Shown here: positions 2,262-50,279 of the stretch, piece by piece
How the letters are laid out: the number at the start of each line of letters is the position of its first letter
Position numbering within the stretch: the stretch's first letter is position 1
Source of the DNA: a virus
DNA: 58,277 bases
IMG/VR virus record: IMGVR_UViG_3300045988_058281
Location: 1-58,277 of that record
Direction: 5' to 3' (one strand)
Made by a program: the position numbers and the translations under genes
The notes under the pieces: model-generated
What the model was told of the DNA's origin: nothing
What the model saw: the letters and a program-made list of their open reading frames with translations, nothing else
Database searches by the model: none

Positions 2262-2489
2262 ATGACCTGCTGGCCGCTCTGTGGGACGCTGTAGGCCGTT
2301 TAGGGTCGCGGGAGTATAGGGATACTTCCAGACGCTAAAATCCGCTCTACGGGCCTGTAAATGGCCTTTACGGAGGTTTTACTTTTTTGCCTCTCCCCTG
2401 CCCCGCTGGACACGGGCACAAAAATGCCGCCTAGAGGCCATAGGATGCCACGCAAGCGGCGGGAAGCTATTGGAGGGTATAGGAAACAC

Positions 2490-6455: not shown

Positions 6456-6495
6456 CATCGTTGACAAAATCATATTGGGCGATTATACTGTAAAC

Positions 6496-6587
6496 AGAAA
6501 AGGGCGTTGCCGGTTCCGGTCAGCCCCTCAAATTACGTCGAAATGATCGCCGCTCTTGTCAGGACGCCGGCGGTCATTTCTTTTTGC
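6496..6587 (+). ncRNA. candidate antisense (antitoxin) RNA of locus 1
   Basis: Promoter is TTGACA (6461..6466), 17 nt, TATACT (6484..6489). A 10-bp terminator stem (6543..6552 / 6568..6577) is followed by TTCTTTTT. The RNA overlaps the toxin 3' end. Confidence 0.5.
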
Positions 6588-6660
6588 ATATCTGGTAGAC
6601 CAGACTGCAAATACCAACGATTAAAATGCCGATTTGAATCAGATCGGAATATGTAACCAT
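6574..6660 (-). CDS. 28-aa hydrophobic Lys-tailed peptide (Hol-Tox / type I toxin-like), locus 1
   Basis: MVTYSDLIQIGILIVGICSLVYQICKKK. The RBS GGAGGG has a 6-nt spacer and can be sequestered by the upstream CCCTCC. Below the ORF-track size cut-off. Confidence 0.6.
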   Translation of the reverse strand: MVTYSDLIQIGILIVGICSLVYQICKKK

Positions 6661-6787
6661 AGGCAGCCCTCCTCTCTGGAGGGCAAGGTCCCTCCGTCAT
6701 TCGTGAGAATGCTTTGGGCTGACCTTTGCCGACAACGCTTGAACTTAGGATACCATACCACTCGACAAGATGCAAGAATAATCGCCA

Positions 6788-6817
6788 TTGACAGGGAAGA
6801 TATAAATTATATATAAT
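6788..6817 (+). promoter_or_regulatory. sigma-A-type promoter upstream of DUF551/terL
   Basis: TTGACA (6788..6793), 18-nt spacer, TATAAT (6812..6817). Confidence 0.5.
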
Positions 6818-7031
6818 CAGACACGCGGGTATTTGAGGTTGGAAATGGCTCCCGACACTCCCTTGTATGAGGACGGAACGGGCAGCCGTCGCCCTAGTTG
6901 GAGATGCGTGAGTGCTGACACGCCGCAAGAGAACCTGAGATGCAGGATACGCCGCCCTGCCAAATATCCAGAGTAAGCCGGAGGTGTCTGAATGGATGCT
7001 TCCGGCTTGCTGCATGATTGGAGGGAACATA

Positions 7032-7261: not shown

Positions 7262-7305
7262 AGTGCCAAGTGCCTCTCCAGATGGAGCGAACAGTGCCAA
7301 GTGCC
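7262..7305 (+). promoter_or_regulatory. AGTGCCAAGTGCC motif pair A (terL leader)
   Basis: Exact 13-mers at 7262..7274 and 7293..7305. Confidence 0.75.
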
Positions 7306-7336
7306 TTTTATCTTACGGGATAGGAGGCACTTTTTT
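7299..7336 (+). terminator. terminator-like / RBS-sequestering hairpin
   Basis: AAGTGCCT (7299..7306) pairs with AGGCACTT (7325..7332). A T-run extends to 7336. The 3' arm overlaps the GGAGG RBS (7323..7327). Confidence 0.5.
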
Positions 7337-7337
7337 C

Positions 7338-8981
7338 GTGGAAATTCGAGAGTTAGTAGTGAGGGCATTTCAGAGAGATTTGTCCGACCCGTCTGCGCTA
7401 TCTGATGCGTTTGATTCAATTAGGCTGTTGGAGCCGGAAGATTTTTCGCTGGCACACGAGCGGAACAAGGAGGTGCGGCGGCTGTCTGCAAAATTCGCCG
7501 CAGAACAAAAAAGCCTCCGCATGTTCGAGCTAAACAAGCGGAGTCTGCTGTTTGATGCCCCGTATGATTTTGACTGTTTTCTTCGTTATATTGAGTGGAA
7601 TAGGCCAAATGACAAGCGGTTTTATTTGCCACGCAGAAAGGTTCTTCTCTCCATCGTAAATGCGTTTCAGCAAGTAGCGGATGGAGCGTTAGACTTGCTG
7701 ACAGTCAGCCAGCCTAAGAGAACTGGTAAGACCACGCTCGGATTGATGTTTGTTTTGTTCCGCGCAGGACAACATCCTGGAGGTTCTTCTATCTGTTCCG
7801 GTGCGGGCAATGATCTGGTAAAATCGTTTTACACTGGATGCCTGGATATTCTGCAAAAGCCGGAGGAGTATCTGTACTACGATGTGTTCCCGAAAGCGAG
7901 GCTTGCGGCTACCAACGCGGACGAAAAGACCATCCACCTCGAAAAGAAAAAGCGGTTTGCCACAATCACTTGCCGGAGTATCGACGGTGCTCTAACCGGT
8001 TCTACAGAGTCTACACCAGAAGGTGTAATGTACCTGGATGACCTTGTGTCTGACGAGCTGGAGGCGAACAACAGAAACCGCCTTGACACTTTGTGGGATA
8101 AAGTGCGCGGCGATTTGCTGGGCCGTCGTTTGGAAGGGTGCCCGATTGTAGCGCAGGGCACACGGTACAGTCTGTATGACCCCTTGGGCCGCTTACAGGA
8201 AATTGCACCTACAATGGGGTGGCGCACAAAGGTTGTTGAAATTCCGGCTCTTGACCCAGTTACCGATGAAAGCAATTTTGAGATTATCTTGAATGGGAAA
8301 CCAGCGTTTACGACGGAATATTACCGGCATGAGCGTGAACTGGTGACACCTGTTCAGTGGGCCAGTCAGTTTCAACAGGAGCCGTTTGAGGCAAAAGGCC
8401 TGCTATTCCCGGAAAATGAACTGAACAGATATTTTGAGTTGCCGGTAGATCAAGAGCCGGATGCCATTATCTCTGTATGCGATACGGCTGAAGGAGGCGG
8501 AGATAGCGTTATGATGCCGATTGCGTACATCTACGGTGAAGATGTATTTATTGAAGATTGTGTGTTTGACAACAGCACCCCGGAAGTCACAAAGCCACAG
8601 TGTGCTAAGAAGCTGGTAGAGCACAAGGTTTCGGTTGCCACCTTTGAGAGCAACAACGCAGGAACTTACTTTGCCCGTGACGTTGAAGAACTGGTCAAAA
8701 AAGTGGGCGGTCGAGTGAGCATAAGAACACGGCGTACTATCAGCAACAAACAGACACGCATTGAAATGGCCTCTGACGGAATTTTGAAGCACTTCTACTT
8801 CAAGGATAAGTCTCTATATAAACCGTCCGATCAATACGGACAGATGATGCGTGAGCTGGTGACATATACGAGAACAGGCAAGGTAAAACACGACGACAGC
8901 CCTGACGGATTAAGCCTTCTTGAAAATGAAATTCGCAACTTAACTTGGGGGAAAGCAGAAGTGTTTAAGCGTCCGTTTTAA
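7338..8981 (+). CDS. terL: terminase large subunit
   Basis: GTG at 7338 lies 10 nt after GGAGG. The track start at 7263 lies inside the motif and was rejected. Walker A is PKRTGKTT. The C-terminal nuclease region has KHDDSPD. Confidence 0.9.
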   Translation: MEIRELVVRAFQRDLSDPSALSDAFDSIRLLEPEDFSLAHERNKEVRRLSAKFAAEQKSLRMFELNKRSLLFDAPYDFDCFLRYIEWNRPNDKRFYLPRRKVLLSIVNAFQQVADGALDLLTVSQPKRTGKTTLGLMFVLFRAGQHPGGSSICSGAGNDLVKSFYTGCLDILQKPEEYLYYDVFPKARLAATNADEKTIHLEKKKRFATITCRSIDGALTGSTESTPEGVMYLDDLVSDELEANNRNRLDTLWDKVRGDLLGRRLEGCPIVAQGTRYSLYDPLGRLQEIAPTMGWRTKVVEIPALDPVTDESNFEIILNGKPAFTTEYYRHERELVTPVQWASQFQQEPFEAKGLLFPENELNRYFELPVDQEPDAIISVCDTAEGGGDSVMMPIAYIYGEDVFIEDCVFDNSTPEVTKPQCAKKLVEHKVSVATFESNNAGTYFARDVEELVKKVGGRVSIRTRRTISNKQTRIEMASDGILKHFYFKDKSLYKPSDQYGQMMRELVTYTRTGKVKHDDSPDGLSLLENEIRNLTWGKAEVFKRPF

Positions 8982-10750: not shown

Positions 10751-10824
10751 ACGGGTGTAGCTCAATGGAGAGCGTCGGATTCCAAATCCGGAGGTTGGGG
10801 GAACAGAGCCTTCCACCCGTGCCA
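10751..10824 (+). tRNA. tRNA-like element, anticodon CCA (Trp), non-canonical T-loop
   Basis: Acceptor ACGGGTG/CACCCGT plus GCCA, D arm GCTC/GAGC, anticodon loop TTCCAAA. The T arm GGGGG-AACAGAG-CCTTC lacks TTC. Confidence 0.5.
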
Positions 10825-10910: not shown

Positions 10911-10984
10911 GGACCATTGGCCCGATGGTCGGGCGGGCCCCTCATAAGGGCTTGGTCTTGGTTCGATTCCAAGATGGTCCACCA
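10911..10984 (+). tRNA. tRNA-Met (anticodon CAT; could be Ile2 if lysidinylated), CCA encoded
   Basis: Full cloverleaf: GGACCAT/ATGGTCC acceptor, GCCC/GGGC D stem, CTCATAA loop, CTTGG-TTCGATT-CCAAG T arm. Confidence 0.85.
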
Positions 10985-11191: not shown

Positions 11192-11239
11192 AGTGCCAAG
11201 TGCCTCCGGGCAATGCCTGGACGAAGCGTGCCAAGTGCC
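11192..11239 (+). promoter_or_regulatory. AGTGCCAAGTGCC motif pair B (portal leader)
   Basis: AGTGCCAAGTGCC at 11192..11204 and CGTGCCAAGTGCC at 11227..11239. Confidence 0.75.
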
Positions 11240-11286
11240 GATCAGTTACCGAGAAATCCTCGGTAGTTGGTCGGCATTTTTGTTTG
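11236..11286 (+). terminator. strong intrinsic terminator immediately upstream of the portal RBS
   Basis: 18-bp stem (11236..11253 / 11259..11276, several G-U pairs), loop AAATC, then TTTTTGTTTG. The 5' arm starts inside the motif. Confidence 0.8.
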
Positions 11287-11301
11287 TCTGGAGGTGACAA
11301 G

Positions 11302-12792
11302 GTGACTGAAAACGATACTGTTCGAGCTATATCTGAGTGGCCGGTTGATGGGCTGACCGGTCGGCGTAAAATCTACACCACAAAAAAGCGAGTCACCCCG
11401 GAAAACGTGGTGGAGGTGCTGGGCAAGGCACTGGCCGTGCATCGCATCAACAGGGCGGAAATGTCCTATTTGTATGACTATTACAGAGGCAAACAGGACA
11501 TCCGGTTGAAAGATAAAATCGTCCGCCCGGAGATCAACAACAAGGTGATGATTAACCGGGCGAACGAAATCGTGGTCTTCAAGTCTGCTTACCTCCTGGA
11601 TGGCCCAATCCGCTATGTGTCCAACGGTGGAGAAGATGATATTTCCGCCAGTGTGAACACGCTCAACGAGTACATGCGATCTGAGAGTAAAGACACTCTC
11701 GACAAGGAGCTGGCCGACTGGATGCACATCTGCGGTGTAGCGGTTCGTATGGTACTTCCCGATGAGGCTGGGGAGGAAGATGGCTCTCCCGCCTCTATCT
11801 ACACCCTTGACCCGAGGGCGGCGTTTTGCATCTACCACAGTGGCGTAGGGCAGAAAAAGGTCGCTGGTGTTCTGGAACAGGTAGACGAGGAGGGCAAGCC
11901 CTACTTCTGCGTGTACACCCCCGAATGGTATTTTGAGGTGCAGAACGGCCAGATCACTAAGCAGGAAGCCCGTACCATCCCCTACATCCCCATTGTAGAG
12001 TATGTGAATAACGACGCCCGCATGGGTGCGTTTGAGCCAGTTATCCCCATTCTGAACGCGATCAATATGATTGAGTCCAATAGGTTGGACAGTATTCAGG
12101 ATTTTGTCAACGCATATGATGTGTTCCAAAACTGCGAACTAGAAGATGGCAAATACAAAGAACTGGCAAAGGGCGGCATGGCGATAAAAATAAGGAGTTT
12201 TGACCAGACCAAAGACGCCAAGGTCTACCGCATTGCTTCTGAACTGAACCAGACCAACACGCAGACCATTGTGGACGATCTGGAAGACGCATACCTGACG
12301 ATTTGTGGGATGCCGAACCGGAACGGCGGTTCCTCTACAAGCGACACCGGGCAGGCGGTCATTTACCGGGATGGTTGGTCTGCCGCAGAGAGCCGGGCAA
12401 AGGACACGGAAAAGACCTGGGAGCGGTCGGAGCGGGAGTTCCTGCGGCTGGTTCTGTATATCTGCCGTGAGACTGGCGTTTTGGGTTTGCAGTTGGCCGA
12501 CATCAAGCCGGAGTTTACCCGCAAGAACCTGTCCAACATCCAGTCCAAGGCCCAAGTGCTGGCGGAAATGCTGAACAACAGCAAGATTCATCCGAAGTTG
12601 GCGTTCCAGTACAGCGGGCTATTCAGCGACCCAGAGGACGCATACAGGATCAGCATGGAATATGCAGAAGAACAGCAACGCAAAATGGAGCGGAGTTTGA
12701 GGGATGAACTGAATGCCAACAGAAACGAATCCGTACAGACTGGCGGACAAAGCAATAGACCTCCTGAACAGCCGAGCAGTCAAGCGGTTTGA
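11302..12792 (+). CDS. portal protein (SPP1 gp6-like)
   Basis: GTG at 11302 follows GGAGGTG. YLYDYYRGKQDI...INNKVMINRANEIV motifs. Confidence 0.9.
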   Translation: MTENDTVRAISEWPVDGLTGRRKIYTTKKRVTPENVVEVLGKALAVHRINRAEMSYLYDYYRGKQDIRLKDKIVRPEINNKVMINRANEIVVFKSAYLLDGPIRYVSNGGEDDISASVNTLNEYMRSESKDTLDKELADWMHICGVAVRMVLPDEAGEEDGSPASIYTLDPRAAFCIYHSGVGQKKVAGVLEQVDEEGKPYFCVYTPEWYFEVQNGQITKQEARTIPYIPIVEYVNNDARMGAFEPVIPILNAINMIESNRLDSIQDFVNAYDVFQNCELEDGKYKELAKGGMAIKIRSFDQTKDAKVYRIASELNQTNTQTIVDDLEDAYLTICGMPNRNGGSSTSDTGQAVIYRDGWSAAESRAKDTEKTWERSEREFLRLVLYICRETGVLGLQLADIKPEFTRKNLSNIQSKAQVLAEMLNNSKIHPKLAFQYSGLFSDPEDAYRISMEYAEEQQRKMERSLRDELNANRNESVQTGGQSNRPPEQPSSQAV

Positions 12793-13333: not shown

Positions 13334-13426
13334 ATAAACGGGCGGCTATCCCGACGGGGAGAAAAGTGGAGTGCCTTGCCACCTGCCGCCTGTTCATTCA
13401 ACAAGGCTGACTATTGGAGGCGATAG

Positions 13427-15088: not shown

Positions 15089-16159
15089 ATGGATTTGAGA
15101 GAAATTTTTACCCCTGCTGCGATTGCGGCAAACTGGACTGAGGTTGCCTCCAACCAGATTCCCTACTTGGGCGCTACGCTGTTCCCCGCCCGCAAGAAGG
15201 CTGGTCTTGACTTGTCCTGGCTGAAAGGCTCCCGTGGGCTGCCTGTCTCTCTGATGCCTTCTGCGTTTGACGCCAAGGCAACCTTCCGTGACCGTATCGG
15301 CTTTGAGAAATTGGAAACTGAAATGCCGTTCTTCCGTGAGGGATACAAGATCAAGGAGAAAGATCGCCAGGAGATGCTGCGGGTGCAGGAGTCTACCGAC
15401 CCCTATGCCGCTGAGGTGATTGCCCGTGTGTTTGACGATACCCGTGACCTGATTGACGGCGCGAACGTTGTTCCTGAGCGCATGATTATGCAGCTGCTGT
15501 TCCCGGAGGGCGGAGATGCGGGCATTGCAATCAAGGCAAACGGGGTGGACTACACCTGCAAGTATGATACGGACGGTTCCTGGAAGACCTCTAACTATAC
15601 CGCTCTGACCAGCACCGCCACCTGGGACAAGCCCTCTACGGCTGATCCATTTGCAGCGTTTAAGATGGTCAAGGATGCAATTCGCTCTAAAACTGGCACT
15701 GAGTTAACAGTTGCCATTATGAACTCCTATACCTTCAATCTTCTGGCAAAGACGGATGCGGTGAAGAACCGTTATCTGACCACCAATGCGATTTCCCTTG
15801 CTTATCTGACTGACACAGAGGTAAAGGCTGTTATCGAGTCTACAGCGGGGCTTCGTATTGCAATTTACGACAAGCAGTTCCGGGACGAGAGTAAAGTTGC
15901 ACATCCGTTTGTGCCCAATGGCTATGTTTGCCTGATTCCAGACGGTGCTCTTGGTAGTACTTGGTATGGCACCACTCCGGAAGAGGCAGATCTGCGCGGG
16001 GCGTCCAGCGCCGAGGTTTCCATCGTGAATACAGGTGTAGCAATTACCCGTATTCTTCAGGAGCATCCTGTAAACATCAACACCTTTGCGTCTGAAATCG
16101 TCCTGCCCTCCTTCGATCGTATGGACGAGGTGGCGGTGATCAACGTCCTGGGGGAATAA
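15089..16159 (+). CDS. major capsid protein (lambda gpE-like family)
   Basis: 356 aa with a TAAGGAGG RBS. The N-terminal FTPAAIAANWTEVASNQIPYLGATLFP pattern is typical of the capsid-E family. Confidence 0.8.
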   Translation: MDLREIFTPAAIAANWTEVASNQIPYLGATLFPARKKAGLDLSWLKGSRGLPVSLMPSAFDAKATFRDRIGFEKLETEMPFFREGYKIKEKDRQEMLRVQESTDPYAAEVIARVFDDTRDLIDGANVVPERMIMQLLFPEGGDAGIAIKANGVDYTCKYDTDGSWKTSNYTALTSTATWDKPSTADPFAAFKMVKDAIRSKTGTELTVAIMNSYTFNLLAKTDAVKNRYLTTNAISLAYLTDTEVKAVIESTAGLRIAIYDKQFRDESKVAHPFVPNGYVCLIPDGALGSTWYGTTPEEADLRGASSAEVSIVNTGVAITRILQEHPVNINTFASEIVLPSFDRMDEVAVINVLGE

Positions 16160-19724: not shown

Positions 19725-19752
19725 CTTTATATTGAGATAGCGGAGATTTTGA
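19725..19752 (+). repeat. repeat copy 1 (CTTTATATTGAGATAGCGGAGATTTTGA)
   Basis: 19725..19743 is the exact reverse complement of 20946..20964. 19731..19752 matches 20338..20359 at 20 of 22 positions. Confidence 0.85.
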
Positions 19753-19787: not shown

Positions 19788-19816
19788 TTGATAGCGGGAA
19801 AAATGGAGTATATAAT
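19788..19816 (+). promoter_or_regulatory. consensus sigma-A promoter of toxin locus 2
   Basis: TTGATA (19788..19793), 17 nt, TATAAT (19811..19816). 6 nt further downstream is the G of GTGGAAACCC. Confidence 0.7.
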
Positions 19817-19951
19817 GATAACGTGGAAACCCGCTGTCGCAATAGAGAGAGACAGCGACGGTTAAAAGGACGGTTGCCTGACATCCCGCGAGTGCGGAAT
19901 GGAGGCGTGTATAGAGCCCTCGCGGGAAATTTTCCTGGGGAGGTGATATAC

Positions 19952-20038
19952 ATAACTCTTCAAAATTTGTTTTGGATCGTTTCTATCATCTGGATCATTA
20001 TCCAGGTGTGGGATAAATTCCGAGACAAAAAGAAGTGA
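19952..20038 (+). CDS. 28-aa hydrophobic Lys-tailed peptide, locus 2 (no AUG; putative AUA start)
   Basis: ITLQNLFWIVSIIWIIIQVWDKFRDKKK. ATA lies 8 nt after GGAGG (19939..19943). The alternative GTG at 19943 overlaps the RBS. Confidence 0.5.
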   Translation: MTLQNLFWIVSIIWIIIQVWDKFRDKKK

Positions 20039-20141
20039 GCCGTCTGCCGCAAACAGAAGGCTCACTGCGTGGTTGGGGCTGACACCCCGGCTATGTATGG
20101 AGTAGCTTATGTACTGTGGCAACCGTCTTTAGGGTTTCCAC
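20025..20141 (-). ncRNA. candidate antisense (antitoxin) RNA of locus 2
   Basis: Minus-strand promoter is TTGATT (20175..20170), 16 nt, TATAAT (20153..20148). Terminator hairpin at 20065..20035, with a U-tract templated by the Lys codons. Confidence 0.55.
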
Positions 20142-20195
20142 ACTTTTATTATAGTATTTTAGGGAAAAAAATCAAGCGATTTTGAAAAAAATATC

Positions 20196-20224
20196 TTGCA
20201 ATCTTAGCGAGCGAATAGTATAAT
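20196..20224 (+). promoter_or_regulatory. sigma-A promoter of the moron ORF
   Basis: TTGCAA (20196..20201), 17 nt, TATAAT (20219..20224). Confidence 0.6.
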
Positions 20225-20337: not shown

Positions 20338-20359
20338 ATTGGGATAGCAGAGATTTTGA
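20338..20359 (+). repeat. repeat copy 2 (direct; ATTGGGATAGCAGAGATTTTGA)
   Basis: Matches 19731..19752 at 20 of 22 positions. Lies about 50 nt upstream of ORF 20410. Confidence 0.8.
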
Positions 20360-20409
20360 TTGCTTCCTCCCTCGAATTATGGTAAGATTTGGGGGGGAGG
20401 GGATATTTT

Positions 20410-20859
20410 ATGAGATGCCCTGTAATAGTACAAAGAGAAAGTAAAAGTGCTGGAGCATTGGGTGGAATAATAATTAAAATAGACTCTTCTGAGGTTGCAA
20501 AAATTCAAAACGGAAAAAGTGTAAAATTATTTGTAGAAGAGGGAAATCACACAATTTCGTTTTGCGTTGGTCGGAAAGCAATCAAAACGTTGAATTTTTC
20601 GGCCTTCCCCGATCAGGATGAAATATTTATCAAATGTTATATAAAATCGAATTGGGGAATTACGCCTGTTATAGAAGCTTATATATCGAATGTTGTTGTA
20701 GCAACAGACAGAACAAATGACAATGGTACACAAACAAACAATAAGTCCGCATGGAAGCAAATTCCTTTGTTAGTTCGTATTGTTATTTGGATTTTTGCTA
20801 TTGGATTTCTATGGCAATTCATTGTCGGATTTTTCTGGGGAATGTCCATTGGGCTTTAA
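20410..20859 (+). CDS. moron-encoded C-terminally membrane-anchored protein
   Basis: 149 aa with a GGGGGGAGGGG RBS. AT-rich, with its own promoter and terminator. The C-terminal TM region is IPLLVRIVIWIFAIGFLWQFIVGFFWG. Confidence 0.7.
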   Translation: MRCPVIVQRESKSAGALGGIIIKIDSSEVAKIQNGKSVKLFVEEGNHTISFCVGRKAIKTLNFSAFPDQDEIFIKCYIKSNWGITPVIEAYISNVVVATDRTNDNGTQTNNKSAWKQIPLLVRIVIWIFAIGFLWQFIVGFFWGMSIGL

Positions 20860-21041: not shown

Positions 21042-24000
21042 ATGGCCGTTGACATTGATAGTCTGCAAATTGAAATAGAGGCAACTTCGAGTGATGCGGC
21101 GGCAAAAATCGACGCATTGGCTACCGCTCTGACCAACTTGAAAGCAGCGGCTAAAGGCGGAGCAGGGCTGACTACGGTCTCTAAGCAAATGCAGGCACTT
21201 GCATCGGCCGCAGCCAGCTTAAATAACACGGGCATAGGCAAGCTAAGAAAAATTGCGCCAGCATTAAATGCCTTATCCAGTGTTCAGAAGTCAAGTGGAC
21301 TGTCTTCGACTGTAAATGCGTTATCAAAATTATCTTCTGTTAGCGAATCTTTGAAAGGAAATTCCATCAAAGAATTTGCATCACAAATGAACCAAGTCGC
21401 CTCTGCTATGCGTCCGCTAGCAACGGAGATGCAGAAGGTATCTAATGGATTCTCAGCTTTCCCAATAAGGATTCAGAAGATCATCCAGAGCAATACCGGA
21501 CTCTCCGCCTCGAACAATAAAGCAGCAAAGAGCTTCGGAGTTCTTGGAACGGGAATTAGTTCCACAACCGCAAAATTAGGGATATATTATTTAGCCTTTC
21601 AGCGTGTAGCAAATATGGCGTCAGATTGGATAAAGTCTGCAAATGACTACATAGAAAATGTAAACCTGTTTCAAGTTTCTATGGGGGAGTTTTATGATGA
21701 GGCATTTGCTTACGCAGAACTACTTAATGATAGGCTAGGTATAGACCCATCGGAGTGGATGCGGGCACAGGGCGTATTTATGTCCATGGCAAACGGTTTC
21801 GGACTTGCCCGCCAGCAGGCGTACGATCTGAGTGAGGGATTGACTGAACTGGCATATGACCTGAGTTCTCTCTACAACGAGGATGTAAGCGAATCTATTT
21901 TGCGGTTACAGTCCGCACTATCTGGTGAAATCGAACCAATTCGAAGGCTTGGTATCTCCATTAGTCAAGCGACGTTGCAGGAATATGCATTAGCACATGG
22001 TATTGATGAAAGTGTTATCTCCATGACAGAACAGGAGAAAGCACTTCTTCGGAGCCTTGTCCTGATGGAAGGTGCAGGTCGCATCGGGGCGATTGGTGAT
22101 TTTGCCAAAACTTTGGAGAGTCCAGCAAACGCCCTCCGTGTTTTGCGGCAGCAAATAACACAGTTGGGACGAGCTATCGGAACCGCCCTTCTCCCTATCA
22201 TTATTCAAATTATACCGTGGGTACAGGCTTTTGTAGAGGTCTTGACAGATGCCATTAGAGCTCTTGCTACCTTTCTTGGATTCACAATGCCAGAATGGGA
22301 GACGAGCGATTGGGCAACTGGAATTACTGATGGAGCATCAGATGCTGAGGACGCTATTGGAGGGGCGACCAGCGCCGCAAAGGAAATGAAAAAAGCCCTC
22401 CTCGGTATTGATGAACTGACTATTTTAGAGCCATCTAATGCTGGTGGATCTGGTGGCATGAGCGGCGGCTCTGGATGGGCAAGCAATTTGGAAATACCTA
22501 ATATTTGGGATAAAAATGCGATACTAGAAATTCAGACAAAAGCTGATGAGGTTAAAAAAGTTTTAGAGGAAGTTCTTTATGATTACGTACTGCCAATCGG
22601 AACGGCATTGGCCGCATGGAAAATAGCCAAAACACTGTCGCCAGAGCTGAAAGCATTAAACGCTTTACTTAGTGGCCTCATGATCTACACGGGAATCTCG
22701 TTGATAGTTGATGGAATTACAGAAGTTTTATTCGGTGATGGATTAACGTGGGAAAGTATTCTCAATGGTGGTGCTGGTGGTCTACTAACAGGGGCAGGTG
22801 TTGGTTCTCTTCTTGCAAAGAAGCTTGGGTTGACCTGGGCAGGTGGGATGCTGGTAGGTGGTCTAGTCGGGCTTGGATTGACCCTTACAGTCATGTCTAT
22901 TATTGCGCAAATCAAAGATGGGCTTAATTTGGGAAATACGATGCTCAATGCCATAGGTGGGGCCTTAGCCGGTGGTGCGCTTGGCGGGTATTTTGCATTT
23001 AGGAGAAACTTAAATCCTGCCCAAGGAGTCATCGGAGGACTGACTGCTGGAATCGGCATATCTCTCCTGATTTCTTCGATAATTTCTATCGCAAAAGACG
23101 GGTTGAACATTGTAAACGGAATTATGGGGGCAATCGGTGGGGCACTTGCCGGATTTGGTATCGGAATGATTTTTGGAGGTGGCGCTGGAGCAGCCATCGG
23201 ACTTGTTATAGGTGTTGGGGTGTCTCTCGTCATAGAGGGTATTACTGCACAAATCGGCGGTGGTGCTCCAAGCCTATCTGGAGGACTTATGACCATTCTC
23301 GGATCTGCATTAGCTGGGGCTGGGATTGGCTCTTTGGTCCCTGTTGTTGGAACCGCAGCTGGAGCAGTAATTGGATTTGGGGTCGGCGTTGTTCTGGAAA
23401 TCATAGGAATCAAAGAGGCCGCAAAAGTAGCTTATGAAGCATCTGAAGATTTCCAAATTATGCAAGACATTCTGGATAGATGTACAGATGCATCTAGCAG
23501 AACAAGCTCAGCTATGGACAGCCTAAAAAATGAAATTGCTGACCTGGATGCCACGGTGGCTAACTATGGAATTGCTAGACAACTTGCGGACGATATCTTT
23601 GATATCAACGAAAATGCAAATGCATCTGCATATGAACTCCAGCAAATGGCAGTAAAAGTTGATGTACTGAACGGCTTAAACATTAGTGGACTTAGGTTAT
23701 CCATTGATGAAACAAACGGACGTGTCATCGAAACAAGAGCCAGTGTTGAGCAACTAATTGAATCCTTAGAGCAAGAGGCCAGATATGAGGCTATGCGAGA
23801 CATTCTGGTGCAAACCTACAAAGATCAATACCAAGCCATGCTGGATGTAAAACAGGCAACGCAAGATTATAATGCCGCAAATGAGGCGCTTATGAACACC
23901 ACGCAAGAGTTAAATGATACACCTTGGTATAACTTATCAAGACGTGAAGAATTAAAACTTGCGCAAGAAAAAGAGACGGAGGCATTAGAGGCTGCCAATA

Positions 24001-24689
24001 GAGTACGTGAAGAGGCTAATGAACTAATTGATATCTCCTGGGGGAAATCTGAGAATTTGATTCAAATGATGCTTGAGCTAAAAGAAAGTGAGGCAGGAAT
24101 CGGAGACGGAACCGTTGAAGGTCTTGTTAATGCTAGAGCAGAAATGGATGACTTTCTCGATGAATATAAGCAGAGTAGTAAGTGGTCGAGCATTGGAGAG
24201 GGAATTGGAACCGGAGTTTCAAATGGGATTGCCAAAAAGAAATCTGCTATTCGAGGGGCGCTAGACAGTGCCCTTTCTGGGATGAAATCAATCTTTAGCT
24301 CCAGTTCGCCACAGAAAAAAAGTGGTCGAATTTTTTCTGAAATGCCAGAAGTAAAGACAATTAACCTAAATGCGTATGCAACTGGCGGCTTCCCTAATTA
24401 TGGCGAAATGTTTATTGCCAGAGAACAAGGCCCGGAGTTGGTCGGCCGCATCGGGAACCGGACAGCGGTAGCAAACAACGACCAGATTGTGGAGGGCGTT
24501 GCCGCTGGTGTGACATCCGCCAACAATGGAGTCATCAATGCTATCTATGCTATGGCTCAGCAAATCATAGCCGCAATCGAAGAGAATGGCGGAGATGTCT
24601 ATCTGGATGGTGATAAGGTAGGAAAACAGGTAACAGCATACCAGAACAGACAAAATCGGATGTACGGAAAGACCCTACAGCGTATATAA
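21042..24689 (+). CDS. tape measure protein
   Basis: 1215 aa, with a helical N-terminus, a Gly-rich multi-TM central region and coiled coils. Lies downstream of the chaperone genes. Confidence 0.9.
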   Translation: MAVDIDSLQIEIEATSSDAAAKIDALATALTNLKAAAKGGAGLTTVSKQMQALASAAASLNNTGIGKLRKIAPALNALSSVQKSSGLSSTVNALSKLSSVSESLKGNSIKEFASQMNQVASAMRPLATEMQKVSNGFSAFPIRIQKIIQSNTGLSASNNKAAKSFGVLGTGISSTTAKLGIYYLAFQRVANMASDWIKSANDYIENVNLFQVSMGEFYDEAFAYAELLNDRLGIDPSEWMRAQGVFMSMANGFGLARQQAYDLSEGLTELAYDLSSLYNEDVSESILRLQSALSGEIEPIRRLGISISQATLQEYALAHGIDESVISMTEQEKALLRSLVLMEGAGRIGAIGDFAKTLESPANALRVLRQQITQLGRAIGTALLPIIIQIIPWVQAFVEVLTDAIRALATFLGFTMPEWETSDWATGITDGASDAEDAIGGATSAAKEMKKALLGIDELTILEPSNAGGSGGMSGGSGWASNLEIPNIWDKNAILEIQTKADEVKKVLEEVLYDYVLPIGTALAAWKIAKTLSPELKALNALLSGLMIYTGISLIVDGITEVLFGDGLTWESILNGGAGGLLTGAGVGSLLAKKLGLTWAGGMLVGGLVGLGLTLTVMSIIAQIKDGLNLGNTMLNAIGGALAGGALGGYFAFRRNLNPAQGVIGGLTAGIGISLLISSIISIAKDGLNIVNGIMGAIGGALAGFGIGMIFGGGAGAAIGLVIGVGVSLVIEGITAQIGGGAPSLSGGLMTILGSALAGAGIGSLVPVVGTAAGAVIGFGVGVVLEIIGIKEAAKVAYEASEDFQIMQDILDRCTDASSRTSSAMDSLKNEIADLDATVANYGIARQLADDIFDINENANASAYELQQMAVKVDVLNGLNISGLRLSIDETNGRVIETRASVEQLIESLEQEARYEAMRDILVQTYKDQYQAMLDVKQATQDYNAANEALMNTTQELNDTPWYNLSRREELKLAQEKETEALEAANRVREEANELIDISWGKSENLIQMMLELKESEAGIGDGTVEGLVNARAEMDDFLDEYKQSSKWSSIGEGIGTGVSNGIAKKKSAIRGALDSALSGMKSIFSSSSPQKKSGRIFSEMPEVKTINLNAYATGGFPNYGEMFIAREQGPELVGRIGNRTAVANNDQIVEGVAAGVTSANNGVINAIYAMAQQIIAAIEENGGDVYLDGDKVGKQVTAYQNRQNRMYGKTLQRI

Positions 24690-35062: not shown

Positions 35063-35330
35063 ATCTATTTTGAAGCGTTTAGCTGCCCTAATGTCCGTCA
35101 AGTCCGTGGTCACGCTGGTCTTGACCGGTGTGTTCGCCTATCTGGCCGTCACCGGACAGATCGCCCAGGACTTCATGACCGTCTATGCGGTGGTCATTGC
35201 CTTCTATTTCGGGACCCAGTCCCAGAAGGTGCAGGATGTGTTGACAGATAGAACGGACGATAGCCCTACGACCATCACAAACTACTACCAGCTTCCCACT
35301 GAGGAGGGAGAAAATGTCGACAGAAAATGA
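35046..35330 (+). CDS. holin (2 TM)
   Basis: 94 aa. VVTLVLTGVFAYLAV...VYAVVIAFYFG. Adjacent to the endolysin. Confidence 0.6.
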   Translation: MKKMPESILKRLAALMSVKSVVTLVLTGVFAYLAVTGQIAQDFMTVYAVVIAFYFGTQSQKVQDVLTDRTDDSPTTITNYYQLPTEEGENVDRK

Positions 35331-35976
35331 TATTCTGGAGATCGCCCGGTCGCAGATTGGGACCAAAGAATCCCCGGCCAAAAGTGATAATGTGAAATAC
35401 AACACTGCCTACTATGGCAGGGAGGTATCCGATGGCAAACACCCCTGGTGTGCCGTGTTCGTCTGGTGGGTGTTCCGGGAGGCCGGGGCTCCCGAGTTGT
35501 ACTACGGCGGCGGAGAGACCGCCTACTGTCCCACGCTGATGTCCTTCCACAAGAATCAGAAGGTGACTGACTACCGGCCAGGAGACATCGTGTTCTTCAA
35601 CTTCTCCGGCAGAAGCTCCGCCGGACATGTTGGCATCTGTGAGAGCTGGGACGGGACCTACATCACCACCATTGACGGCAACACCGGAAGTGCCAGTGAG
35701 GACAACGGCGGTGCAGTACTGCGCCGCCGGAGACACAAGAAATTCATTGTGGGCGCATATCGCCCCGAATATCAGGAGGATGATGATATGACTCAGGATC
35801 AGTTTGATGCAATGATGGAAAACTGGATGTCCAGGCAGGCCAAGAAGAAACCGACCCAGCAGTGGGAAATTGAAGGGCTGGAAAGAGTGGTTAAGGCTGG
35901 CGTTACAGATGGGTCCAGGCCCATGGGTTTGTGTACTCGACTGGAGGCTGCTATGATGGCGGCTGCAAATAAGTAA
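35314..35976 (+). CDS. endolysin, CHAP-domain peptidase
   Basis: PWCAVFVWWVF (catalytic Cys) and AGHVGICES (His) motifs. Confidence 0.85.
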   Translation: MSTENDILEIARSQIGTKESPAKSDNVKYNTAYYGREVSDGKHPWCAVFVWWVFREAGAPELYYGGGETAYCPTLMSFHKNQKVTDYRPGDIVFFNFSGRSSAGHVGICESWDGTYITTIDGNTGSASEDNGGAVLRRRRHKKFIVGAYRPEYQEDDDMTQDQFDAMMENWMSRQAKKKPTQQWEIEGLERVVKAGVTDGSRPMGLCTRLEAAMMAAANK

Positions 35977-35991
35977 TAAGGACGTGACCAA

Positions 35992-36252
35992 ATGAGTGCA
36001 AGAGTAAAACTTCCAGAACCGTTGGACAGGCTCTTGCGCTCAGAGCTTAAAATAGCAATCGAGGAAGCTGCGCTTCATCGTGACGATGACATCATCGCCA
36101 GAAGGTATATCATTGAGAAGATGCCACAGGCAGATATAGCGGCTGAGTTGGGCTGGGATAGGTCAACAGTGTCTCACCACCTTTCGTACATAATGGATGA
36201 AGTGAAGCGGTCCGCAAGTAGAATTGCACAAAAAGAAGGAGTCGGGAATTGA
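35992..36252 (+). CDS. sigma-70 region-4-like HTH protein
   Basis: 86 aa. IIARRYIIEKMPQADIAAELGWDRSTVSHHL. Confidence 0.6.
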   Translation: MSARVKLPEPLDRLLRSELKIAIEEAALHRDDDIIARRYIIEKMPQADIAAELGWDRSTVSHHLSYIMDEVKRSASRIAQKEGVGN

Positions 36253-36266
36253 CCCGGCTCCTTTTT
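36238..36266 (+). terminator. intrinsic terminator ending the late region
   Basis: GGAGTCGGG pairs with CCCGGCTCC, followed by TTTTT. Overlaps the locus 3 promoter. Confidence 0.7.
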
Positions 36267-36277
36267 ATTGGTATAAT
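36249..36277 (+). promoter_or_regulatory. sigma-A promoter of toxin locus 3
   Basis: TTGACC (36249..36254), 17 nt, TATAAT (36272..36277). 6 nt further downstream is GTGGAAACCC. Confidence 0.7.
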
Positions 36278-36432
36278 TCGGCTGTGGAAACCCACCGTCT
36301 ACTGTCGAGTTTTATCCGCCTTTGTAGATGGTGTGCGGTTAAAAAAGACGGTTGCCTGACCATCCCGCGAGAGCGGAAAGGAAGGCGAAATATGTAGCCT
36401 CGCGGGAAATAATTCCTCGGGAGGTGATACAT

Positions 36433-36531
36433 ATTACTTTGACTTTCACCTTTGCAGTTTTGGGTGCCATTGGCTCCATTGCAAGCATTGTGTCCCTCGT
36501 GCTCTATGTGCGCGATAGAAAGAAGAAGTGA
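36433..36531 (+). CDS. 32-aa hydrophobic Lys-tailed peptide, locus 3 (no AUG; putative AUU start)
   Basis: ITLTFTFAVLGAIGSIASIVSLVLYVRDRKKK. ATT lies 8 nt after GGAGG. The alternative GTG at 36424 overlaps the RBS. Confidence 0.5.
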   Translation: MTLTFTFAVLGAIGSIASIVSLVLYVRDRKKK

Positions 36532-36625
36532 GCCGTCTGCTGCAACAGAACGGCTCATGGATGTTTGAGGGCTAAGCCCTCGGCCCTGTAAGTCTTATGT
36601 ATGTGGCAACCGTCTGGGTTTCCAC
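36517..36625 (-). ncRNA. candidate antisense (antitoxin) RNA of locus 3
   Basis: Minus-strand promoter is TTGACA (36659..36654), 16 nt, TATAAT (36637..36632). Terminator hairpin at 36556..36530, with a U-tract templated by the Lys codons. Confidence 0.55.
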
Positions 36626-36860
36626 ACTTTTATTATACCCCAAAGAAAACGAATGTCAACTATGCAGAGTAACGAAGTTACGTCGTTACGTATTTCACAT
36701 AAATCCCACATAACTCCCACACAACTCCCGCATGGATGCCACCCATGCGGGCTTATTCTATGCGACAATATATCCATGGAGGACGTGGGGATCAAGGGTT
36801 GGTACACGTCGCCGCCCTCCTCACGGACTCCATTATTTTTATACAAAGGACGTGTGATAT

Positions 36861-40347: not shown

Positions 40348-41481
40348 CTAAATTGCATCAGTCACCTTTCTGAGGTCTTCAAAGGAGACATCTTGATAAT
40401 GTCGGAGCATTTCGGGGGAGGTGTGGCCCATCAATTCCAGCTTGTCCTTATCGGAGCCAGCCACCCGCTTCATCATCGTTGCAAAGGTGTGGCGGCAGCT
40501 GTGTGGAGTGTATTTCCTCCTCTTGACACCATCGACCTCTAGTATTGGATTGTCGATCCCGCAATTATCCAGAACAGAATAAAAGAGAGACCGATATGAG
40601 GCTATACTCATTTGGCTACCATCGGAAGAGCAGAAGACCGGACCAGAGAGCTTGTCTTTTGTAAGTCGGTCCACAATAGGCTGGATCTTCGGAGATACTG
40701 TGACGATACGGTCCTTTCCGGCGTCTGTTTTTGCACCACCAATAAATGCACGTTCTTTTCGATTATAGTTGATGGCGTCCAATGCAAGAAACTCAGATGG
40801 ACGGAATCCTAAATAACACTGACATAGAACATAGTCCGCACCTACGACCGATGAGATATGAGCCTCTATGGACCTGACAGCAGCCTCAGGTAGTGCATCC
40901 TTTCCAGAACCAGCCTCTCCCCCAACGATCAGATACTGGCCCATATTGATTTTTGCCATATTGCGCGGGATCGCATACTTATAGATAAGCCCGGCCAGAG
41001 CTTTCATATTTTCCTGCGTTCGCTTTCCCTTCCCACAGGAGTCTAAACACTCCTGAAGATCATCCACTGTAATGTCTGCCAGCTTCTGATGCCAAATGGG
41101 CCTGAAATACTTTTTAGCAGCCCGGTAGCAGTCCATTGTTGACTTTCCGGCTCGGTGGGTCGGCTCCCACGAATCATAGAGTTCGATGAAAGTGGTGGGA
41201 CGTGTTTTGTCTTCTCGCCCAACCAATGGAAGATACTCCACAGCCTCTTTTTTCGTCCTGAATCCAGATTTTGAGCGGGTGATCCTCCGCATAGTTCCAT
41301 CTGCTGCGGGCTCATAGCCGATGGTCCTTACGGCGATCCACTTTTTGTTGGGAAGCTGATACACGGAGCCCTGACCATTTCCGCGGCCTTTTGGATTTTG
41401 CCTGATATTTTGTGCAACTCCGCAGAGCATACAGAACCGGCTTCCATCTGGTATTTCTCCCCTGCATTTTCTGCATTTCAT
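40348..41481 (-). CDS. int: tyrosine integrase with N-terminal zinc ribbon
   Basis: Start MKCRKCRGEIPDGSRFCMLCG with an AGGAGGGAAA RBS. C-terminal HSCRHTFAT...LMGHTS...RHY catalytic motifs. Confidence 0.9.
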   Translation of the reverse strand: MKCRKCRGEIPDGSRFCMLCGVAQNIRQNPKGRGNGQGSVYQLPNKKWIAVRTIGYEPAADGTMRRITRSKSGFRTKKEAVEYLPLVGREDKTRPTTFIELYDSWEPTHRAGKSTMDCYRAAKKYFRPIWHQKLADITVDDLQECLDSCGKGKRTQENMKALAGLIYKYAIPRNMAKINMGQYLIVGGEAGSGKDALPEAAVRSIEAHISSVVGADYVLCQCYLGFRPSEFLALDAINYNRKERAFIGGAKTDAGKDRIVTVSPKIQPIVDRLTKDKLSGPVFCSSDGSQMSIASYRSLFYSVLDNCGIDNPILEVDGVKRRKYTPHSCRHTFATMMKRVAGSDKDKLELMGHTSPEMLRHYQDVSFEDLRKVTDAI

Positions 41482-41582
41482 TGACAGTTTCCCTCCTATC
41501 ATGTAAAATAGAAGGGCAGATCGCCGACCATAGCTTCTGCCCCCCTTCCCTGCCCGGTGTTGGTAGCGCCGGGTGGGGATTT

Positions 41583-49706: not shown

Positions 49707-50279
49707 ATGGACATGGCCTCTGATATCCGCAGCATGCTTACCGCCCAGCAGGTGGCGGAGCACTATGGGTTTGAGGTCAACCGCTCTGGCTTTATGAAGT
49801 GCCCCTTCCACACAGGGGACCGCACCGCCAGTCTGAAACTGTACGATGGAGAGAGCGGATTTCATTGCTTTGGCTGCGGAGCACACGGCTCCATCATTGA
49901 CTTCGTAATGCGCCTCTTTGACCTGAATTTCCGTCAGGCGGTGCTCCGGATCAACGCAGACTTTCACCTGGGCCTTACCTCCAGTAAGCCGGACCGTGCA
50001 GCCCGTTCAGCGGCCCTGGAGGCCCGGCGGGAGGAAAGGCGCAAAAAGGATCAGGCTGACGAGAACTTTCGCTACATGGCCTATGAACTGCACTACTGGA
50101 AGGATGTTCTGGAGATTTTCCCACCAGTCCGTCAAGGCGATGATGCTTACTATCATCCATTATATGTCGAGGCCGTCAAGCGCCTCCCGTATATCGAATA
50201 CTGGCTTGACGACTTTATTGAGAAGGGAGGCAAGGAGCATTGGATGAAGTGCCCGCTTATACCCGCGATGACTATTTGA
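49707..50279 (+). CDS. CHC2 zinc-finger (DnaG-type) protein
   Basis: MKCPFHTGDRTASLKLY...FHCFGCGAHGSIIDFV. Confidence 0.8.
   Translation: MDMASDIRSMLTAQQVAEHYGFEVNRSGFMKCPFHTGDRTASLKLYDGESGFHCFGCGAHGSIIDFVMRLFDLNFRQAVLRINADFHLGLTSSKPDRAARSAALEARREERRKKDQADENFRYMAYELHYWKDVLEIFPPVRQGDDAYYHPLYVEAVKRLPYIEYWLDDFIEKGGKEHWMKCPLIPAMTI

Follow-up and report, generated by a model that had tools for sequence, protein, structure and literature searches.

The question raised by positions 19788-20175 of the 58,277-nt viral stretch analysed here (IMG/VR record IMGVR_UViG_3300045988_058281; the whole stretch is called the window) is what is encoded where two consensus promoters converge on an open reading frame (ORF) of 28 codons that has no ATG. 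The stretch is that of a temperate, siphovirus-like phage or prophage, and it carries three loci with this convergent layout: locus 1 on the minus strand directly upstream of the terminase region, locus 2 at the positions given above and locus 3 at 36249-36659. Taken together, the data suggest, with a probability that we put at roughly 0.7, that each locus is an autonomous type I toxin-antitoxin-like module of a temperate phage, of the kind in which the two transcripts overlap at their 3' ends and with a hok-like fold-back of the toxin mRNA. An earlier description made from the sequence alone (the original prediction) had pointed to the same architecture.

Alignment of loci 2 and 3 shows identical blocks at the 5' and 3' ends and a diverged ORF core, as had been claimed, and the motifs GTGGAAACCC and GACGGTTGCC occur four times each in the window, only at these two loci and as inverted pairs. 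The four convergent consensus promoters proposed for these loci were all found by a promoter scan, at 10-12 of 12 consensus positions. The sense promoters are TTGATA-17-TATAAT at locus 2 (19788-19816, plus strand, 11/12) and TTGACC-17-TATAAT with a TG at locus 3 (36249-36277, plus strand, 11/12), the latter overlapping the terminator hairpin of the upstream gene. Both -10 boxes end 6 nt ahead of GTGGAAACCC, again as described, which at locus 2 is 6 nt ahead of the GUGGAAACCC of the transcript. The antisense promoters are TTGATT-16-TATAAT (20148-20175, minus strand, 10/12) at locus 2 and TTGACA-16-TATAAT (36632-36659, minus strand, 12/12) at locus 3. The predicted toxin mRNAs, each folded alone and compared with shuffled sequences, run from 19823 to 20152 (plus strand, about 330 nt; minimum free energy -155.8 kcal/mol, z -11.0) and from 36284 to 36636 (plus strand, about 350 nt; -139.8 kcal/mol, z -6.5).

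Relatives of loci 2 and 3 were collected in three samples: 61 viral contigs matching the 3' motif in a pattern scan; 120 genome contigs from a single palindromic pattern, about 85 of which are true members by profile search; and 120 metagenome contigs from a pattern that avoids both of the long-range helices described below, 107 of them with enough flank for helix analysis. A profile search of all fetched viral, genome and metagenome loci gave 237 full-length copies, and 78 mutually diverse members, headed by the two window copies, make up the alignment referred to here as A2. Where hosts are named, they are Oscillospiraceae, Ruminococcaceae or metagenome-assembled genomes of Clostridia, and isolates with family members include Pseudoflavonifractor sp. 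60, Hominicoprocola fusiformis CLA-AA-H188 and Ruminococcaceae bacterium AM07-15. Matches to Mycobacterium, Mesorhizobium and similar genomes in the genome scan are chance palindromes, which the profile does not recover. The sense promoter matches at least 11/12 positions in 71 of the 78 A2 members and its -10 box lies 6-7 nt from GUGG in 67; the antisense promoter never falls below 9/12 and reaches 11/12 or more in 65. The promoters are thus conserved in A2 as well as present in the window.

Searches of known collections gave little. There was no blastn match of locus 3 in the GenBank phage collection or in PLSDB plasmids, and no tblastn match of two peptides in the phage collection; such phages are probably missing from these collections, and the low-complexity filter may mask the peptides. 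The original prediction did not recognise the RNA family and neither does Rfam: none of the three loci has a match at gathering score, and permissive scans of each locus gave matches only far below the cut-offs. No toxin-mRNA or antitoxin-RNA family of the par/Fst, RatA, SR4 or Sok type appeared in these permissive scans.

The sense RNA of both loci is predicted to be closed by two long-range helices, which are present in the minimum-free-energy structure of both full transcripts. At locus 2, closing helix 1 pairs 19823-19832 with 20132-20141 and closing helix 2 pairs 19869-19878 with 20118-20127, with a 5' hairpin between their 5' arms (19833-19857) and an internal helix, CCCGCGAG/CUCGCGGG, further in (19885-19892 with 19919-19926). 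The corresponding closing helices of locus 3 are 36284-36293 with 36616-36625 and 36347-36356 with 36605-36614. When the named structure was counted on A2, 96.1% of cells were paired and 19 pairs (98 cells) had changed on both sides. None of 500 column shuffles reached these values, and sliding the 3' partners by 1-3 columns left 32-45% paired. Changes on both sides are seen in closing helix 1 (5/9 pairs), the 5' hairpin (5/5) and the CCCGCGAG/CUCGCGGG helix (6/8). Closing helix 2 is invariant in A2 (0/10) because the genome search pattern fixed both its arms. In the 107 metagenome loci, which were chosen without it, both arms are canonical in 65, and the variants include GACGGTCGCC/GGCGACCGTC (3 loci), GACGGCTGCC/GGCAGCCGTC (2 loci), a paired one-base deletion, GACGGTGCC/GGCACCGTC (2 loci), and G.U wobbles (19). 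The covariation check that had been proposed for the closing helices therefore gave compensatory changes for helix 1 in A2 and for helix 2 in the metagenome sample, and the internal helix, also described at the outset, covaries too.

The kind of wobble found in each helix suggests on which strand it acts. G.U cells outnumber A.C cells in closing helix 1 (34 vs 6), the CCCGCGAG/CUCGCGGG helix (32 vs 9) and the 5' hairpin (26 vs 12), which indicates that these are helices of the sense RNA. For the stop-codon hairpin the order is reversed (G.U 16 vs A.C 28, an A.C cell being G.U on the antisense strand), and this hairpin thus leans to the antisense strand, as expected of an antisense terminator.

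The CCCGCGAG/CUCGCGGG helix has a loop (GUGUAUAGAGCCCUC at locus 2, AAUAUGUAGCCUC at locus 3) with complementarity to the region of the Shine-Dalgarno sequence and start codon; at locus 2 the segment able to pair in this way is 19907-19921. The alternative stem that the loop would form there overlaps the 3' arm of the helix. The initiation-sequestering duplex has a mean energy of -16.5 kcal/mol and is stronger within than between sequences (p about 0.01, kinship among the sequences being ignored). A third long-range pairing, of the start region (AUACAU) with the 3' untranslated region (UTR; AUGUAU), is doubtful (-9.1 vs -8.5 kcal/mol, p about 0.004) and we do not claim it. A local 3' hairpin, GUGGcAACC/GGUUuCCAC, with ACUUUUAUUAU after it (20116-20152, plus strand, at locus 2) is a further possible fold of the sense RNA in the window arrangement. 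It is plausible that this hairpin is the sense terminator, competing with the closing helices and later yielding to them.

The ORF of locus 2 (19952-20038, plus strand) has 28 codons from an ATA and a TGA stop, and would encode (M/I)TLQNLFWIVSIIWIIIQVWDKFRDKKK. That of locus 3 (36433-36531, plus strand) has 32 codons from an ATT and a TGA stop, and would encode (M/I)TLTFTFAVLGAIGSIASIVSLVLYVRDRKKK. Both end in KKK-TGA, and the hydrophobic ORF of 28-32 codons after GGAGG that had been proposed is thus present at both loci. An ORF of 27-34 codons stands at the same place in every member of the family, in about 160 distinct variants, and always reads as a hydrophobic stretch followed by a Lys/Arg-rich tail, which among 61 distinct metagenome peptides is KKK in 30 and RKK in 15. 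The peptides fall into at least four types whose nucleotide sequences are unrelated (TLQxxFW.., TSTILxVLGALGSIAS.., MDILxxxGSICSI.. and TLLxxAAIC..). In 21 ungapped members of the 'TLQ' type the ratio of nonsynonymous to synonymous polymorphism (pN/pS) is 0.38 in the ORF frame, compared with 0.94 and 1.01 in the other frames, and third codon positions vary most. To judge from these substitutions the micro-ORF is a protein-coding gene under purifying selection. Loss of the ORF from conserved RNAs, which would have spoken for a purely non-coding element, is not what the relatives show. Four members look decayed: in L080 (Pseudoflavonifractor sp. 60) a frameshift makes the ORF read past the usual TGA, L218 has an in-frame stop, and L237 and L313 no longer have the usual ATT or ATA in one frame with the usual stop.

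Protein records contain no description of the modules. The three window peptides are absent, in any start form, from a collection of 15 billion proteins, which bears out the expectation that gene callers would miss them; the modules are invisible to such programs because the ORFs have fewer than 30 codons or lack a canonical start. One ATG-type peptide, MDILTIVGSICSIVGLAFAIHVYIKSKNEKK, is found on 308 contigs in public collections, unnamed or as 'hypothetical' in Bacteriophage sp. records.

As the original prediction stated, neither the ORF of locus 2 nor that of locus 3 has an AUG, and the ATA (19952-19954) and ATT (36433-36435) each lie 8 nt past GGAGG and in frame. The Shine-Dalgarno sequence of locus 2 is the extended GGAGGUGAU (19939-19947, plus strand); the GGAGG of locus 3 is at 36420-36424. 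Start codons were counted 7-10 nt past GGAGG, or as far as 12 nt from it in a few members with ATG, GTG or TTG, the position in 8 of the 78 representative rows being placed by eye. A start could be placed in all 78 representatives and in 66 of 80 metagenome variants, and it is always ATG or a one-base neighbour of ATG. The counts in the representative and the independent metagenome set, respectively, are ATT about 27 and 13, ATG about 21 and 10, ATA about 16 and 33, ATC 5 and 5, ACG 4 and 3, TTG 3 and 1, and GTG 2 and 1. ATG thus stands at this position in about a quarter of the representatives, and the ATG members (MTLQDFFCC..) are direct homologues of the ATT/ATA members ((I)TLQDFF..). Two other candidate starts were rejected. 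A GTG inside the Shine-Dalgarno sequence is followed in the commonest variant by an in-frame TGA ahead of the ORF and would leave no spacing for initiation, and a downstream TTG is not conserved and lies at least 14 nt from the Shine-Dalgarno sequence.

Pairing of the Shine-Dalgarno sequence with the anti-Shine-Dalgarno (a 16S rRNA tail assumed from general knowledge) is stronger in near-cognate members than in ATG members (-15.3 vs -13.0 kcal/mol; Mann-Whitney p = 0.005, members being treated as independent of kinship). The full 9-nt GGAGGUGAU is present in 18 of 46 near-cognate members and in none of 19 ATG members. From position and homology we read near-cognate initiation as real and as holding toxin output low.

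On the opposite strand, an antisense RNA of about 110 nt had been proposed, with the hairpin at the toxin stop codon as its terminator and a U-tract templated by the lysine codons; the predicted RNAs agree with this. That of locus 2 (20026-20141, minus strand) is 116 nt as folded (z -3.3) and is the complement of the toxin mRNA over its entire 3' UTR, and that of locus 3 (36512-36625, minus strand) is 114 nt as folded (z -3.5). Each folds into three hairpins (5', middle and 3'), the last of them strong and succeeded by ACUUCUUUUUG at locus 2 and by ACUUCUUCUUUCU at locus 3. The stop-codon hairpin of locus 2, AGTGAGCCGTCTG/CAGAAGGCTCACT (20034-20066), supplies on the minus strand the terminator stem of the antisense RNA, and Lys codons at 20027-20035 template its U-tract. 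This double use explains why AAGAAGTGAGCCGTCTG is nearly invariant in nucleotides while the rest of the ORF drifts: the antisense terminator stem and U-tail are the complement of the stop-codon hairpin and the Lys codons. Perfect complementarity between sense and antisense RNA extends over 100-115 nt. The antisense promoter is conserved and the predicted RNA ends, at the level of sequence, in a terminator-like hairpin with a U-rich tail.

The antisense -10 box abuts the closing-helix sequence directly in about 47 A2 members, as in the window. In about 25 others it lies some 35 nt further out, past an extra G+C-rich hairpin, and the predicted antisense RNA is about 35 nt longer. Since this hairpin is followed by UUGUGUUAUUAUUAU on the sense strand, it would act there as a sense terminator.

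The antisense unit also occurs by itself. In the profile search, internal matches to the 3' half only numbered 12, compared with one to the 5' half only. In L146, which was read directly, a second unit (2308-2457, minus strand) follows a complete module and lacks a toxin ORF: what it keeps is a Lys-codon remnant, the 3' arms, an antisense promoter of its own and the hairpin, in which a GGGCC/GGCCC change is compensatory. Further stand-alone copies of the antisense half were found by profile in L016, L066, L095, L120 and L159, those in L066 and L159 lying, by coordinates, directly after a complete module. Some of the 3'-only matches (L260, L280 and L302) may instead be complete modules with a diverged 5' part. 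The stand-alone copies suggest that the antisense unit is a gene in its own right, and they look like orphan antitoxin genes. Three contigs carry two complete modules each, in tandem on the same strand in L152 and L159 and, in L095, on opposite strands some 3.6 kb from each other; a partial copy is present in addition in L159 and in L095.

Locus 1 shows the same design. Its predicted toxin mRNA (6492-6739, minus strand) is about 250 nt long (minimum free energy -103.8 kcal/mol, z -6.2) and is closed by helices pairing 6738-6729 with 6513-6504 and 6724-6716 with 6526-6518. A hairpin of CCCUCC (6683-6678) with GGAGGG (6672-6667) would sequester the Shine-Dalgarno sequence. The micro-ORF (6574-6660, minus strand) has an ATG, 28 codons and a TGA, and encodes MVTYSDLIQIGILIVGICSLVYQICKKK. 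A plus-strand promoter, TTGACA-17-TATACT (6461-6489, 11/12), would drive an antisense RNA of about 97 nt (6496-6592, plus strand) ending in a hairpin and then AUUUCUUUUUG, which is templated by Lys codons. The peptide, the CCCTCC/GGAGGG hairpin, the GCGTTGTCGG/CCGGCAACGC helix and the promoter had all been described for this locus and all are present.

A degenerate peptide pattern found relatives of locus 1 on 21 viral contigs, whose ATG-initiated peptides have the form MVTYSDLIQIGILIVGI..(K/R)K. These relatives share the layout of Shine-Dalgarno-sequestering hairpin, stop-codon hairpin, 3' arms and convergent promoter. In 17 relatives the 5' and 3' arms differ between variants and stay complementary: pairing is -30.8 kcal/mol within a sequence vs -26.1 kcal/mol when permuted (z -4.2, 0/5000 permutations, in a comparison that ignores kinship). 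The window peptide aligns with Pfam Hol_Tox (PF16935) at 16.6 bits (E = 0.007; the curated cut-off is 23.3 bits), and 12 of 12 distinct peptides of the relatives do so at E<=1, the best at E 2.5e-5; the alignment covers profile positions 1-26 of 34. No homology between the peptide families of locus 1 and of loci 2 and 3 was detected with hhalign (probability 14%). The original grouping of the three loci as one family thus holds for the design, which is common to all, and does not extend to sequence. Locus 1 belongs to a second family of the same design, possibly a short relative of the TxpA/BsrG-type toxins.

From these features a mechanism may be proposed. A constitutive-type sigma-70 promoter would give a toxin mRNA of 250-350 nt, whose first 55-75 nt or so would pair with its last 25 nt or so through two helices flanking a variable 5' hairpin, making a closed molecule whose Shine-Dalgarno sequence and start codon are held in pairs by a segment upstream of them. 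Translation would be throttled by this sequestration and a second time, in the majority of the locus 2/3 family, by having its near-cognate start 7-10 nt past a very strong Shine-Dalgarno sequence. The product, a peptide of 27-34 aa with one hydrophobic helix and a Lys/Arg tail, would insert into the membrane and be toxic. From the convergent consensus promoter would come an antisense RNA, about 100-115 nt long, that matches the 3' UTR over its full length and is terminated by the complement of the stop-codon hairpin with a U-tract from the terminal Lys codons of the toxin. In the 3'-overlapping systems of Bacillus subtilis, loop-loop contacts initiate pairing, a full duplex forms and RNase III cleaves it (PMC6562991). 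By analogy with txpA/RatA, bsrG/SR4 and yonT/SR6, pairing here would begin from hairpin loops, extend to a long duplex and end in RNase III cleavage. The 5' end of the antisense RNA is the same in sequence as that of the mRNA, because both pair with the same 3' segment. An antisense RNA that pairs over its full length must therefore drive the mRNA 5' end out of the closing helices, and this end could then become open to a 5' exonuclease. The benefit to the phage is likely to be prophage retention or the exclusion of other phages.

A more specific proposal for loci 2 and 3 is tentative, and we regard it as possible rather than probable. Tying a lethal peptide to near-cognate initiation beside a near-perfect Shine-Dalgarno sequence would make its synthesis depend on the fidelity of start-codon selection (initiation factor 3 and the state of the ribosome) and hence responsive to translational stress or phage takeover. 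The antisense RNA would do more than block: with a 5' end that mimics that of the mRNA, it would invade the fold-back by strand exchange and turn a stable, silent mRNA into a substrate for RNase III and a 5' exonuclease. The shared use of Lys codons and U-tract would force the toxin C-terminus and the antitoxin terminator to evolve together.

Several points weigh against reading the loci as toxin-antitoxin modules. Transcription, toxicity, neutralisation and biological role are all deduced from sequence, and initiation at AUU, AUA, AUC and ACG from position and homology. For the peptides of loci 2 and 3 no toxin family gave a match: against Hol_Tox, three of 24 peptides of this type match at E about 0.09, and the window peptides are not among them. 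The antisense U-tracts (ACUUCUUUUUG and ACUUCUUCUUUCU) are broken by C and a simple terminator scan did not call them, and the stop-codon hairpin is so nearly invariant that covariation says little on it. The tests of cis versus trans pairing and the Shine-Dalgarno comparison ignore phylogeny. Finally, full antisense pairing opens the fold-back and could in principle favour translation unless cleavage is fast.

The position of the loci bears on what the peptides do. All three lie in intergenic gaps: locus 2 is within the tail module directly ahead of the tape measure gene, and locus 3 is downstream of the endolysin (35314-35976) and a small sigma-like ORF, which is a classical moron position. 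The ATG-type peptide MDILTIVGSICSIVGLAFAIHVYIKSKNEKK is encoded at a site comparable to that of locus 3, with the integrase or host lysS on one side and the prophage lysis module on the other. Such sites, together with the weak likeness of the peptides to holin families (Hol_Tox for locus 1, as above; the T7 holin family for locus 2, at E = 0.03) and the fact that their toxicity is deduced, would suit an antisense-regulated moron, that is, a small, non-toxic phage membrane protein concerned with superinfection exclusion or with modulating holin action or lysis timing, whose dose is set by the cis-antisense RNA. We consider this unlikely, though it is the best of the alternatives. Layered suppression by fold-back, sequestration, near-cognate start and a consensus antisense promoter is a hallmark of harmful products and would be unusual for an accessory protein. 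The stand-alone antisense copies beside complete modules resemble orphan antitoxins, and several copies per phage, or tandem copies, are what is seen in known type I toxin-antitoxin systems.

The absence of a canonical start from loci 2 and 3 would also be explained if each locus were a purely non-coding structured RNA with an antisense partner, the micro-ORF being an untranslated by-product; the strong RNA structure and the greater conservation of the untranslated regions than of the ORF core are consistent with this. But frame, length (27-34 codons), the hydrophobic-plus-Lys design and the position of the stop are kept while the nucleotides diverge completely, pN/pS is low only in the ORF frame, and about a quarter of members have ATG, the others a one-base neighbour of it at a fixed distance from a strong Shine-Dalgarno sequence. 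This makes a non-coding role improbable. Least credible of all is a mobile DNA cassette resembling a miniature inverted-repeat transposable element, for which the 22-nt terminal inverted repeats (TATAAT..GTGGAAACCC/GGGTTTCCAC..ATTATA) acting as DNA with incidental RNA features, the direct repeat around locus 2 described below and the multiple, sometimes tandem, copies would speak, since the arms keep pairing through G.U wobbles that are mismatches in DNA (as in closing helix 1) and through compensatory changes, the outer parts of the 'repeats' are the two consensus -10 boxes, both coding and structural selection act on the interior, and there is no associated transposase.

Cassette-like spread by recombination is compatible with the toxin-antitoxin reading. 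A 22-nt direct repeat, 91% identical (ATTGAGATAGCGGAGATTTTGA/ATTGGGATAGCAGAGATTTTGA, 19731-19752 and 20338-20359, 607 nt apart), encloses locus 2, some 160 nt of additional sequence and a promoter-like site (20196-20224), which suggests that locus 2 came into the tail operon in cassette form. There are also three copies of a 23-nt motif, GGAGATTTTGAAAAAAGAATTTC (at 19742, 20175 and 20301).

Like txpA/RatA, bsrG/SR4 and yonT/SR6 of B. subtilis, the present modules lie on a prophage or mobile element and consist of convergent units overlapping at their 3' ends. In both cases the toxin is small and hydrophobic, the Shine-Dalgarno sequence is partly sequestered, and the toxin 3' UTR is the target of an antisense RNA about 100 nt long. 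The tail of BsrG is also KKK, and the locus 1 peptide shares with TxpA and BsrG an xTYxxL motif at its N-terminus. The modules differ from these systems in that there is no sequence or Rfam match to their RNAs, and in that the peptides are 27-34 aa long rather than the 38-59 aa of the known toxins. Additionally, the mRNA here is closed by long-range 5'-3' helices, the locus 2/3 family mostly uses AUU, AUA, AUC or ACG in contrast with AUG or GUG, and the hosts are Oscillospiraceae and other Clostridia rather than Bacilli. Very strong ribosome-binding sites combined with rare start codons damp translation in the B. subtilis systems too: those of txpA and yonT are perfect, and yonT and fst have GUG starts, the same logic in a milder form (PMC6562991).

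The likeness to hok/Sok of plasmid R1 lies in a toxin mRNA whose 5' and 3' ends are paired and whose initiation region is sequestered, a pairing proposed to keep that mRNA inert. It concerns how the mRNA works and not family membership: Sok pairs with the 5' leader and acts via the overlapping mok frame, whereas the antisense RNA here covers the 3' UTR. No conserved mok-like leader ORF was seen among the members, in which the in-frame stops upstream of the start vary, and Rfam gave no match indicating homology to hok/Sok. The toxins of the CD/RCd systems of Clostridioides difficile resemble the present peptides in having Clostridia hosts, a prophage location, a hydrophobic N-terminal part and a Lys-rich C-terminal tail (PMC6563280), and a role of these prophage type I systems in maintenance of mobile elements has been shown (PMC6563280; PMC7699646). 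They are 30-56 aa long, have no Rfam or Pfam link to the present modules and are compared by design rather than sequence; predominant near-cognate starts are not reported for them in these two papers (PMC6563280; PMC7699646). Apart from C. difficile, Clostridia yielded almost no type I toxins in earlier homology searches (PMC6563280). In the literature we found no description of type I systems in Oscillospiraceae phages or of a toxin family dominated by near-cognate starts. The kind of system is well known and the two families are new, as is the combination of features: a fold-back in a 3'-overlapping system, an antisense terminator made from the stop-codon hairpin and Lys codons, and a majority of near-cognate starts.

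The remaining landmarks of the phage are a terminase (7263-8981), an SPP1-type portal (11200-12792), a major capsid protein (15089-16159), a tape measure protein of 1215 aa (21042-24689), a tyrosine integrase (40348-41502, minus strand) and a DUF927 primase-like protein (50240-52081). A skipping-rope RNA (Rfam RF02924, 60.8 bits; 6828-6968, plus strand) with a 12/12 promoter at 6788-6817 diverges from locus 1, the promoter regions standing back to back directly upstream of the terminase gene. A RAGATH-31 RNA (RF03101, 83.2 bits; 36778-36831, plus strand) lies about 120 nt past the antisense promoter of locus 3, preceded by a terminator-like hairpin (36727-36751); the sequence downstream of the module is similar in the related locus L062. 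An int-alpA RNA (RF02996, 57.5 bits; 13339-13406, plus strand) lies within the head-morphogenesis region. Rfam gives two tRNAs on the plus strand (10751-10821, 52.0 bits; 10911-10984, 57.8 bits); ARAGORN calls only the second, as tRNA-Met (CAT), and the first may be degenerate or unusual. Between locus 2 and the tape measure gene there is a 156-aa ORF (20389-20859, plus strand) with a TTG start after the Shine-Dalgarno sequence GGGGGGGAGG and a weak lipoprotein match (phrog_890, E = 2e-4), which may be a second moron of that gap. In the prophages that carry an MDIL-type module (L207-L213), a reverse transcriptase (RVT_1) gene stands beside DUF4376 and DUF6273 genes about 4-6 kb from the module, an arrangement that suggests a diversity-generating retroelement.

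Type I systems are known mainly from Proteobacteria, Bacilli and C. difficile, and the present analysis adds two abundant candidate families in the prophages of gut Clostridia. The dominance of AUU, AUA, AUC and ACG at a position where relatives hold AUG is unusual and offers a natural series of variants for the study of near-cognate initiation and of the limits on toxin dose in Firmicutes. The modules mark moron insertion sites in the genomes of gut phages. Being about 400 bp long and self-contained, with two strong promoters, they are also candidate tools for stabilisation and counter-selection in gut anaerobes that are hard to manipulate.

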